A stretch of 64,000 nt of DNA from Promethearchaeota archaeon (GCA_016840165.1 JAEOSU010000025.1:1-64000), one strand, 5' to 3'; positions 34,247 to 37,018 are shown, counted from the stretch's first letter. Program-made: numbers and translations. The notes: generated by a model from the letters alone, not told the origin.

Positions 34247-35173
34247 ATGATAAAGATGAATGAATTTAATGTAGAATCATATATTAAAGCAGGAAAAGCT
34301 GTTATCGCAGCGAAAAAGCTTGCACGAGAATTAGTAGAACCAGGTGCTCTTTTTCTCGAAATCGCGGAAAAATGCGAAGATGAGATAATTAAACATAATT
34401 GTGAATTATCATTTCCAATAAATATGTCGTTAAATGAAGTTGCTGCCCACTATAGTCCACCAATAAAGGATAATACCATTGTACCGGAAAAAGGTCTTTT
34501 AAAAATTGATCTCGGGTCACACTATAATGGATTCATCGCTGATAGTGCATTCACTATTAATTTAGATGGAGATAGTGAACTTCAAAAAATAATTGATGCT
34601 GCCGATGAAGGTTTAAAAGCAGCTATCGAGATTTTTCAACCTGGAACTAAACTTTATGAACTTGGAGAAGCTATTCAAAAAAAGATAAATAGTTTTGGAC
34701 TCAATCCAGTTAGAAATCTCGGTGGCCATGAGTTAAAAAGGTTCAATCTACATGCTGGGCCTTTTATTCCTAATGTAAAGGATATGCAACATAATCAAGA
34801 GTTAAAACCGGGAGTGGCATACGCGTGCGAACCTTTTGCTACTCCAGGAGATGGTTGGGTGAATAATGGTTCGTCATCATATATTTTTCGTTTAATTAAG
34901 AAACTTAAGAAAAATATTCCATATCAAGAACTTAATTATATTAATAAAATTGAAAAAATAACGCATAAACTTCCTTTTTCACCTCGCATCCTAGCCAAGA
35001 ATAAAGTTATGCCCACAAATCAAATAGAGCGATATGTAAACACATTTCTGCGTAAGAATGTCATAATGGAATATCCTATATTAATTGAGCAGAGTCGAAA
35101 ATTTGTATCACAACAAGAACATACTATAATTATTGATATGGATGGAAATCCAATTGTTACCACGCAAGAATAA
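34247..35173 (+). CDS. map: Type II methionine aminopeptidase
   Basis: FPIN.S.NE.AAHYSP, KIDLG.H..G.IADSA, NLGGH, LHAG, EPFAT, Q.EHT. Confidence 0.95.
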   Translation: MIKMNEFNVESYIKAGKAVIAAKKLARELVEPGALFLEIAEKCEDEIIKHNCELSFPINMSLNEVAAHYSPPIKDNTIVPEKGLLKIDLGSHYNGFIADSAFTINLDGDSELQKIIDAADEGLKAAIEIFQPGTKLYELGEAIQKKINSFGLNPVRNLGGHELKRFNLHAGPFIPNVKDMQHNQELKPGVAYACEPFATPGDGWVNNGSSSYIFRLIKKLKKNIPYQELNYINKIEKITHKLPFSPRILAKNKVMPTNQIERYVNTFLRKNVIMEYPILIEQSRKFVSQQEHTIIIDMDGNPIVTTQE

Positions 35174-35993
35174 AGATCCCGAGCGAATAATAGCTGTTAT
35201 TTTATGTGCAGGAAAAGGAACCAGAATTAAAGATACATTCCCATCGACTCCGAAATCATTAATCAAGATTAAAGCGTTTAATAACGAGCCAATTTTAGGT
35301 AATTTAATTTCTAATCTATTAGATTTAAAGATAAATTTAATAGATATTGTAATAGGATATCTAGGTTTTCAGATTGAAGAATATATTAATTTTCTTAAAG
35401 AAACGGGAGAAAAGAAATATAGGATTATATCTATAATTGACTCTGAAAAGGAATACCAAAAAGGCCCTCTTTATTCATTTCTAAGTATATATAAAAATTT
35501 TGACAAATATTCATTAAATGATGTATTCCTTGTTCTTCCAGGAGATACTATCTTTAGTAATAGTTTACTAAAAGATGTTCTTTGGGTTATATCAAATCAA
35601 CATGATAGATTTCAGGTAGTTCCAGCAATCTTTTATCAAAATATAAAGAAAGATGACCTTATACAGCTTAAACAAGTTTCATATTCGATATTAGAATCTC
35701 TTCCTGAAAAGGAAGGGCTTTATTTTATTAAATCTATTGAAAGGGAAAAAATTAATCAGAGTATAGATTACATTAAAAAAGTGGTTCCAATTGTATGCTT
35801 TCCTTATCAAATAATTAAAAATTTCCTTAATAAAGCATTTAAAATGAATTTTACATCGATTAGAGAGCTGATAAACTTCTTAATAAAAGAAAAAGGTCAA
35901 AAATTTGAGTTTTATGAGCTTAGTTCAAAATATAAATTCTTCGATATTGATTCTGAAAGAGATTTTACGAATTTCAAAAAAAGTGGACAATAG
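35133..35993 (+). CDS. NTP-transferase domain protein (start uncertain, overlaps map)
   Basis: ILCAGKGTR, PKSL, PGD, FDID. Confidence 0.8.
   Translation: MIWMEIQLLPRKNKDPERIIAVILCAGKGTRIKDTFPSTPKSLIKIKAFNNEPILGNLISNLLDLKINLIDIVIGYLGFQIEEYINFLKETGEKKYRIISIIDSEKEYQKGPLYSFLSIYKNFDKYSLNDVFLVLPGDTIFSNSLLKDVLWVISNQHDRFQVVPAIFYQNIKKDDLIQLKQVSYSILESLPEKEGLYFIKSIEREKINQSIDYIKKVVPIVCFPYQIIKNFLNKAFKMNFTSIRELINFLIKEKGQKFEFYELSSKYKFFDIDSERDFTNFKKSGQ
35976..35982 (-). terminator. Oligo-T (T7) terminator of the putative ncRNA
   Basis: Seven A on + strand, 1 nt beyond the 3' strand of the terminal helix. Confidence 0.5.
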
Positions 35994-36474
35994 TTGCTCC
36001 GATTATCTCAGAATTATTGATTCAATGGATTCATTGCAACTTTACTCCAATGAAGCTAATCCTGAATCAAAGCTCCTATATTTACCTTTTTAATACATCG
36101 TATTCATCGACTAGATGTCTTGTGTATTAAAAAAACTACTCATTCCTCAACAAGATGTTAAGTATTCGAGCTTCTAGTAAACGCGTTAATTCTATTATTT
36201 TCTTTCTCGATCACTTTGGTGTAAAAAAGTCTCCAAAGTACAATACTAATTAATTGCTTTTTTGTATTTAGAATCTTTATATCTTGATATTACAGCTAGA
36301 AGCGCTTTTTTAAAAAAATTCAAACATGATTTTTAGGTTTTGTCGGTATGAAAAGAAATATACTGGGTTTCAAAAAAAGACCAGATATTAAAACGATTTA
36401 AATTATCAGATAACAACTAGTACGCTGTTTAATATGCTGTACAGTAATCTAAACCAATGCTATACTATTGTCCA
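35984..36474 (-). ncRNA. Putative ~490-nt structured non-coding RNA of unknown family
   Basis: 11-bp terminal inverted repeat (35984-35994/36464-36474), at least 7 internal stems, G-U pairs on the minus strand, upstream TATA, downstream T7, no credible ORF. Confidence 0.7.
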
Positions 36475-36495
36475 ATAGTAAAATGGTAATTCGAC

Positions 36496-36503
36496 TATAT
36501 AAA
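36496..36503 (-). promoter_or_regulatory. Archaeal TATA box (TTTATATA) for the putative ncRNA
   Basis: ~23 nt upstream of the 5' GG of the terminal helix, with an A-rich BRE-like flank. Confidence 0.55.
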
Positions 36504-36622
36504 TGTTATTATTAAATATATTTTAAGAAGATAGTGCAGCAAAAATTGATTCTATATTTATTTTATAAGGTAACTGGCATTTATAAGAGTATAAATAGAG
36601 CTATAAACTATATTTATAAAAT

Positions 36623-37018
36623 ATGTCAAGTAGTCAAGAATACCTAATCAAAATTGATCTCTTTGGAATTGGTAGATTACATGGTCAAATTATACGACAT
36701 TTAGCACCCTTATCTGCTGATGCTGTGCTAGATAAATTACCATTTGTTTTAAGAGGAAGATTCAGTTTTGGTTCAAAATCCTATTGGACACTTCCAGGTA
36801 TGGAATTATATAAAGGACCAAATCCTAAATCGAGTAACATTGCTAAAAAAGGAGATTTGATATATAATCCAAAAACAGATGAATTAATTATCGTGCTAGA
36901 AGATATTAAAATGGAAAACAAGATTAATAAGATTGGTGAAATAACTGATAATCTTGAACTAATAATACACGCAAGAAATGGATTAAATACAAAAATATCA
37001 AGAAGAACTTTAGAATAA
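36623..37018 (+). CDS. Cyclophilin-like fold protein
   Basis: RHLAP.S...L..LP, GD..Y.P, N.IG pattern. Confidence 0.7.
   Translation: MSSSQEYLIKIDLFGIGRLHGQIIRHLAPLSADAVLDKLPFVLRGRFSFGSKSYWTLPGMELYKGPNPKSSNIAKKGDLIYNPKTDELIIVLEDIKMENKINKIGEITDNLELIIHARNGLNTKISRRTLE

Follow-up and report, generated by a model that had tools for sequence, protein, structure and literature searches.

To our knowledge, very few large noncoding RNAs (ncRNAs) have been described in archaea beyond ribosomal RNA (rRNA), RNase P RNA, and signal recognition particle (SRP) RNA. The last two, the archaeal RNase P RNA (RF00373) and SRP (7S) RNA (RF01857), are several hundred nucleotides (nt) long and are encoded, one copy per genome, by stand-alone genes in which a TATA promoter precedes a helix that joins the ends of the RNA and an oligo-T tract follows it. 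The locus described here is organized in the same way. It lies in a 64,000-nt window of Promethearchaeota archaeon (GCA_016840165.1 JAEOSU010000025.1:1-64000; genome G000), "the window" being this whole stretch, whose numbering we use throughout. We show that positions 35984 to 36474, on the minus strand, constitute a real, independently transcribed, single-copy ncRNA gene, the predicted product of which measures ~490 nt from the first to the last base of a terminal helix and has its ends paired. This assignment is based on a conserved promoter and terminator, covarying helices, single-copy synteny throughout one family, and metatranscriptome coverage confined to the RNA. A reading made earlier from the DNA of the window (the sequence-only reading) had proposed a multidomain minus-strand RNA of an unrecognized class with the gene organization of archaeal stable RNAs, and both the comparison with relatives and the RNA coverage support that proposal.

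Beyond this shared layout, the RNA matches neither SRP RNA nor RNase P RNA in sequence or structure, and both are present elsewhere in the lineage. Unlike them, it has an unconserved interior, occurs in one family only, and is AT-rich, with a GC content of 0.295 versus 0.316 for the genome mean, 0.48 for the SRP RNA, and 0.42 to 0.46 for RNase P RNA of the lineage (0.42 to 0.48 for the two RNAs together). Other large, lineage-restricted ncRNAs found, like this one, by comparative genomics are OLE (RF01071), GOLLD (RF01998), and ROOL (RF03087), which are abundant in cells and whose functions are unknown or partly known. Those RNAs are bacterial or phage encoded, ornate, and conserved over their full length, whereas the present RNA is archaeal, AT-rich, conserved only at its ends and in a few elements, and without a match in Rfam. 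In eukaryotes, Y RNA, vault RNA, yeast telomerase RNA, and the Sm-class small nuclear RNAs (snRNAs) are flexible-scaffold RNAs of ribonucleoproteins (RNPs), with paired ends and U-rich sites. The archaeal RNA resembles these in its closing stem, its 3′ oligo-U tail, the conserved elements near the stem, and its rapidly changing interior of variable size, and its U-tracts resemble the Sm sites (RAU4-6GR) of the Sm-class RNAs. This is a likeness of layout only, as no Rfam family of these classes matched at E values up to 10, and the U-tracts are longer than eukaryotic Sm sites and lie in hairpin loops.

The gene interval sits between open reading frames (ORFs) at 35133-35993 and 36623-37018, both on the plus strand. 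Its minus strand contains no ORF of at least 30 amino acids, by which we rejected a coding gene, and its plus strand holds short chance ORFs only. The sequence-only reading had pointed to a perfect inverted repeat bracketing the interval; tggacaatagt (35984-35994) is indeed the exact reverse complement of actattgtcca (36464-36474), but of 100 dinucleotide shuffles made of this region, 12 also attained a perfect inverted repeat of 11 bp, and by itself the repeat is not beyond chance. The TATA box and the run of seven T residues that the sequence-only reading had placed around the repeat are both there when the minus strand is read: TTTATATA (plus 36496-36503) precedes the U of UGGACAAUAG by 21 nt, and the T7 (plus A-run 35976-35982) comes directly after the 3′ strand of the helix. 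Since these single-sequence signals are weak, the case for an RNA gene rests on relatives and on expression.

Comparison with relatives begins with the terminal helix, P1, in which UGGACAAUAGU (36464-36474, minus) pairs with ACUAUUGUCCA (35984-35994, minus), the latter overlapping the stop codon of the convergent transferase ORF (35133-35993). In the alignment of the genus, read on the minus strand, one end consists of an invariant UUGGACAAUAGU followed by CAUUGG, and the other of an invariant AUCGGAGCUACUAUUGUCCA followed by T7 to T11. Across 42 sequences, position 1 of P1 is G-C in 40 and A-U in 1; position 3 is C-G in 34, U-A in 5, and U-G in 3; and position 9 is U-A in 23, G-C in 11, and A-U in 6. 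On comparative grounds, the compensatory changes at these three positions, together with those in the 3′ domain, show selection on pairing in the RNA. P1 ranges from 10 to 12 bp in length, and in one subgroup of genus g12 its inner three pairs have been lost while five outer pairs (GAAAA/UUUUC) have been gained.

The promoter and terminator are conserved along with the helix. The promoter (36496-36523, minus) comprises the TATA box TTTATATA and, just upstream, an A-rich stretch resembling a B recognition element and a conserved TTAATAA; the block TTAATAAnAAnATTTAWATAG is conserved throughout the genus alignment. The distance from TTTA[AT]A[TA]A to the first G of the helix is 22 to 24 nt in 36 of 41 unique homologues and 26 nt in one; in the remaining four, which have 5 bp added at the outer end of the helix, the motif stands 28 nt ahead of that G. 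Both promoter block and spacing are conserved in all 41. In the g12 subgroup, the TATA box is 5 nt farther from GGA, which leaves the spacing between promoter and helix start unchanged. The terminator (35976-35982, minus) is the oligo-T tract, T7 in the window, immediately 3′ of P1, and the homologues displayed carry a tract of T5 to T13 after the helix, interrupted by a single C in a few. The predicted transcript would begin with the first base of the helix, with a consensus archaeal TATA box ~22 to 24 nt upstream, and would end at the oligo-T tract directly following P1. The orientation of these signals and the G-U pairs place the gene on the minus strand: two invariant U-G pairs in helix P2 correspond to A-C mismatches on the plus strand, and the U-G variant of P1, which occurs in genus g16, would pair on the minus strand only.

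BLAST comparison with 40 relatives showed that the first ~100 and last ~80 nt of the interval (plus coordinates) are ~80% identical across the genus, with the middle unalignable except in G007, the closest relative. The adjacent upstream protein is 35 to 40% identical in amino acid sequence among the same relatives (49% in G007), and the noncoding ends are therefore much more constrained than that gene. Predicted RNAs within the genus measure ~450 to 515 nt, except for one of 414 nt and one of 794 nt, and homologues across genera range from 358 to 632 nt. A covariance model built from the 3′ ~200 nt (R1) matches 92 of 131 other genomes of the family, distributed over genera g1, g12, g16, g19, and g23, as a single copy in all but two of them, and matches none of 19 genomes that represent three further families of the order. 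The syntenic interval of genera g13, g14, and g15 is without the R1-type 3′ domain and still retains a gene with the same promoter, the terminal helix, GCAUUGG 8 to 9 nt after the helix, and an oligo-T end; the homologue in G056 (locus L083) likewise occupies the same slot, with the same neighbors and promoter, a GGAYAAUAG/CUAUURUCC helix, GCAUUGG, and an oligo-T end, and genus g17 has a 362-nt version of the RNA. The pattern GGAYAAUAG-N4-24-GCAWUGG matches 73 of 134 other genomes of the family, almost always once each, whereas the reversed pattern used as a control matches in 4 of 161 genomes. Matches to the core motif in families f2 and f5, the second of which lies outside the order of the window's organism, have neither promoter nor 3′ partner, fall in GC-richer, coding-like sequence, and were dismissed as chance.

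Altogether, the gene was found in at least nine genera of the organism's own Lokiarchaeia family, five through R1 and four through the core motif and synteny. Judged by these searches, the RNA is restricted to this one family among the families searched. Its place in the genome is equally stable, since the order Asp/Asn-tRNA synthetase, methionine aminopeptidase, sugar-nucleotidyltransferase, the RNA on the opposite strand, cyclophilin-like protein, VTT/DedA protein, and Alba is kept in the five R1 genera. Every genus examined has the RNA convergent with the sugar-nucleotidyltransferase gene, and this holds even in g17, whose cyclophilin-like gene lies 9.5 kb off. The conservation that the sequence-only reading had asked for is thereby found, with the RNA in the same slot across genera and both P1 and the 3′ domain covarying. 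Its suggestion that some flanking genes might be partners of the RNA found no support: the whole neighborhood is simply syntenic, and the adjoining transferase is of the sugar-1-phosphate nucleotidylyltransferase type, which gives that gene no link to RNA.

The 3′ domain (35996-36073, minus) forms, in the RNAalifold consensus, a long irregular hairpin stacked on P1 and composed of three helices on the minus strand, namely, P2 (36066-36073 with 35996-36003), P3 (36057-36062 with 36010-36016), and P4 (36046-36054 with 36021-36029). In 36 sequences fitted to R1, 8 of 25 pairs have changed on both sides, versus 4.4 in shuffles (2 of 500 reach 8), and the covariation score is 0.137, versus 0.092 in shuffles (0 of 500 attaining the observed value) and 0.013 to 0.047 when the pairing partners are slid; fitting the alignment to R1 somewhat favors the structure in this test. 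The slid controls and the independent P1 data argue that the covariation signal is nonetheless real. The sequences of P1, P2, and P4 hardly vary, even at positions that could change without loss of pairing. Of the inner stems drawn by the sequence-only reading, 36395-405/36445-55 and ~36357-36389 recur in relatives and 36030-36/36048-54 forms part of the conserved P4, but 36017-24/36063-70 and a "3′ hairpin" at 35997-36013 conflict with the covariation-supported P2, P3, and P4 and are probably not native.

Expression was assessed in environmental RNA. Six public metatranscriptome runs from wetland and salt marsh contain part of a 1.2-kb query centered on the gene, and four of them, from four studies, were mapped onto 35700-36900 at a threshold of 85% identity. 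All contigs of these four runs lie within 36041-36460, and none falls on the flanking coding sequence at 35700-35986 or 36479-36900. The longest contig, of 417 nt, spans 36056-36460 at a depth of 47.7, and the next, of 392 nt, spans 36062-36453. Because some contigs are 97 to 99% identical to the window, sequence from the flanks in the same strain, whether mRNA or contaminating DNA, would have cleared the 85% threshold too, and its absence is a usable control. Between the contigs and the predicted ends of the RNA, 14 to 20 nt are left uncovered on the 5′ side and ~57 nt on the 3′ side; since these breaks fall where co-occurring relatives share sequence, they are not evidence on the true ends, and adapter-adjacent contig ends differ between runs. 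Loose contig ends also revealed variants from another clade of the genus in these RNA samples.

The RNA belongs to no family of Rfam 15 and is a new family. A scan of the whole window at gathering score gave no match, and a relaxed scan of the region (E up to 10), of the kind that the sequence-only reading had called for with RNase P and SRP models included, gave only SNORD34 (15.4 bits, E 8.8), straddling the 3′ end and terminator; across 15 homologous loci no family recurred and SNORD34 was not repeated. A box C/D small RNA was rejected, the sole SNORD34 match being at chance level and the junction sequences not fitting a kink turn (k-turn) on inspection, and the same inspection found no fit for k-turn readings of the P2/P3 internal loop or of the UCUUGU/GAGACA element. 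ARAGORN detected no transfer RNA (tRNA) or transfer-messenger RNA (tmRNA) gene in 35800-36700. Short words in common with U4 and U6 (AGCUUUG, GCAUUGG, and GAGAC), whose order differs, we take to be chance, and a U4/U6 snRNA identity was set aside because no covariance-model match backs them. Complements of the conserved motifs across the genome amounted to scattered chance matches, and complementarity to rRNA was uninformative, since rRNA genes are almost entirely unassembled here and in two relatives. In the full-text literature, we found no description of such an RNA, nor of any large ncRNA in Asgard archaea.

What the RNA does can be approached through what it conserves. The best explanation, which we favor with moderate confidence, is that of an end-paired RNA acting as a stable, protein-bound scaffold, that is, as the RNA of an RNP. 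In this scenario, the closed ends would protect the molecule, and the sequence-invariant helices and junction would serve as protein-binding platforms, while the interior tolerates change. The U-tracts in hairpin loops and in the 3′ tail, which are conserved in position, would then be candidate sites for Sm-like archaeal proteins, and the genome encodes three proteins with LSM domains (C104:23490-23684, C88:5831-6046, and C4:37805-37993). Invariant helices, a free interior, and AT-richness together favor a protein platform over a compact, self-folding machine. It is tempting to go further and see the core of a novel, abundant RNP particle of one Asgard lineage, a counterpart of the eukaryotic small stable RNPs with stem-closed ends, a 3′ oligo-U tail, and Sm-type rings on U-tracts, although we consider this extended proposal speculative and rather improbable.

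Several observations weigh against the RNA or against a role as scaffold. The thermodynamic folding of the RNA is no better than that of shuffles (z-scores of −1.70 on the minus and −1.98 on the plus strand, significant on neither), a result that the sequence-only reading would count against an RNA; we set it aside because the comparative and expression evidence is stronger and the RNA has a GC content of 29.5%. RNAalifold, applied to a 29-sequence multigenus alignment, returned no consensus pairs for the 5′ and central domains. The metatranscriptome contigs give neither strand, true ends, nor abundance. Moreover, the internal U-runs should act as archaeal termination signals, yet the contigs read through all four of them (U6 to U7). 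U-runs are common in a genome of 31.6% GC and are absent in g14, and strings of the RAU5-12G type, found in many g1 sequences, are missing from the window's own copy as well as from g14. The scaffold proposal is itself an argument from the pattern of conservation, and its protein partner would at present be a candidate only.

Other functions have to be set beside the scaffold. Copies of short motifs raise the possibility of a protein sponge or decoy similar to bacterial 6S or CsrB, in which an abundant RNA titrates one nucleic-acid-binding protein through short repeats: CAUUGG or CAUUGA occurs three times and CAAUAG twice. Sequence conservation extends to the GCAUUGG close to the 5′ end, to the UUCAUUGGA and UCCAUUGAA of P4, and to the second CAAUAG, which lies just 5′ of P2, and the RNA appears abundant relative to its neighbors. 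Only two or three motif copies exist, however, two of them paired to each other in P4, the titrated protein would be a hypothetical one, and g13 to g15 retain the 5′ copy alone, for which reasons we regard a sponge as unlikely. Still less probable, in our view, is that the RNA regulates the convergent sugar-nucleotidyltransferase gene as a cis-antisense RNA. The stop codon of the transferase does lie inside the 3′ strand of P1, and the convergent arrangement holds throughout the genera examined, the 3′ overlap being the one gene association to persist where synteny on the other side is lost (g17). The transcript 3′ ends would nevertheless overlap by ~10 to 18 nt, and fewer than 20 nt do not account for an RNA of 490 nt whose distal domains are conserved and whose ends are closed by a helix. 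Moreover, the fast evolution of the transferase contrasts with the invariant RNA ends, and no transferase mRNA appeared in the four RNA runs. A ribozyme, or another RNA with a protein-independent function, could be suggested by several invariant and apparently unpaired elements (GCAUUGG and UGAUACNYGAGACAU), which could form a tertiary core; but the RNA is very AT-rich and its fold weak, the conserved elements of the middle and the 3′ part are missing in g13 to g15, and no Rfam ribozyme family shows similarity, all of which makes this a very improbable reading.

The alternatives that the sequence-only reading had itself kept in view, an RNase P or SRP RNA that has diverged very far and a miniature inverted-repeat transposable element (MITE), are refuted, and we assign them practically no likelihood. 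In favor of the first, RF00373 finds no match in the organism's own genome. Neither the region nor the 15 homologous loci matched the model at E up to 10, whereas canonical RNase P RNA (115 to 142 bits) is present at another locus in 17 of 24 same-genus genomes, including G007, which carries both it and the RNA described here. RF01857 has no match in the region either, and the SRP RNA of G000 lies on another contig, at C30:95130-95369 (locus L001; E 1.6e-15). A MITE would account for the 11-bp terminal inverted repeat, but the assembly of G000 (3.6 Mb, 99.7% complete) has a single copy of the element, which occupies one syntenic site across genera, and the changes in its repeat are compensatory, including G-U.

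Two peculiarities of these housekeeping RNAs in G000 may be recorded here. That RF00373 detects no RNase P RNA in so complete a genome is most likely due to an assembly gap. The SRP RNA scores 70.2 bits, under the gathering score of 96.5, and covers model positions 67 to 307 only; the 5′ (Alu-domain) part of the Lokiarchaeia SRP RNA thus seems to be divergent or missing.

A single-copy RNA of ~0.5 kb that has a strong promoter, is detected in environmental RNA, and has been kept through the whole history of a multigenus family implies a cellular function that has not been described. Its invariant ends offer a specific handle, whether as probe, pull-down bait, or covariance model, for identifying its protein partners and the process in which it acts, in organisms that are mostly uncultured. 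Novelty is established at the level of the RNA family, and whether a new mechanism is involved depends on the function. Asgard archaea are the closest known relatives of eukaryotes, and if the RNP-particle proposal were true, the partners and function of the RNA would bear on the origin of eukaryotic Sm-class or RNA polymerase III-type RNPs.

Between P1 and the 3′ domain, the RNA contains several further features, all on the minus strand. The junction motif GCAUUGG (36454-36460), 4 to 24 nt after P1, is near-invariant and is kept even in genera with a different interior. The 5′ hairpin domain (36395-36455) has an outer helix that begins at the GG of this motif, with a small inner hairpin within; the minimum free energy (MFE) fold of the window yields a GGUUUAGAUUA/UAAUUUAAAUC helix here, and the inner hairpin varies by clade at one position (ACAGC/GUUGU, CGGU/ACCG, and CAGU/ACUG). 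Single-sequence MFE folds of the domain are mutually inconsistent. Next follows the U-loop hairpin (36357-36389), CUGG ... U7 ... CCAG, with its U-tract at plus 36372-36378. A run of at least six U residues (a U6 to U12 tract) is found at RNA position 88 to 104 in 32 of 41 homologues, flanked by stems that differ by clade (CUGG/CCAG, CCGA/UCGG, GUGA/UCAC, and CCAA/UUGG); an automated stem finder applied around the U-runs proved too noisy in such AT-rich sequence. Both the 36395-405/36445-55 stem and the U-loop hairpin recur topologically in other clades.

The variable central region (36156-36356) is hardly alignable between clades and is the source of most differences in length. It is followed by a conserved element (36115-36155), UCUUGUYGA ... 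U-rich loop ... UGAUACNYGAGACAU, whose sequence is conserved in 35 sequences from five genera. The inner stem of this element covaries (GAGUA/UACUC, UAGCA/UGCUA, and GGUAU/AUACC), and a possible outer pairing of 5 bp, UCUUG/CRAGA, shows a single compensatory change alongside several mismatches.

Individual genomes depart from the common form in a few ways. The ~794-nt RNA of locus L022 (G003:C5) has ~300 extra nt inside its 3′ half and lacks the usual T-run at its end, and may have decayed or acquired an insertion. Two full copies, on C117 and C57, occur in G014, where the 9% contamination of the assembly suggests mixed strains instead of a true duplication, and G148 (C118) has two matches to the 3′-domain model. 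At the other end of the gene, the transferase ORF (35133-35993, plus) terminates inside the RNA gene (35976-35993), and its last codons, Lys-Lys-Ser-Gly-Gln-stop, are the complement of the terminator U-tract and the 3′ strand of P1, a convergent 3′ overlap that is kept in relatives. Lastly, a second copy of AAUAG (36074-36081), just 5′ of P2, is able to pair with the CUAUU of the 3′ strand (35984-35994) in place of the 5′ end, which would close the 3′ domain alone. The A-U, U-A, and A-U pairs of this arrangement are invariant in 36 of 36 sequences, and in g12 and g16 an extra pair that covaries in P1 also fits the internal copy. Such a pairing could represent an alternative fold or a cotranscriptional intermediate.

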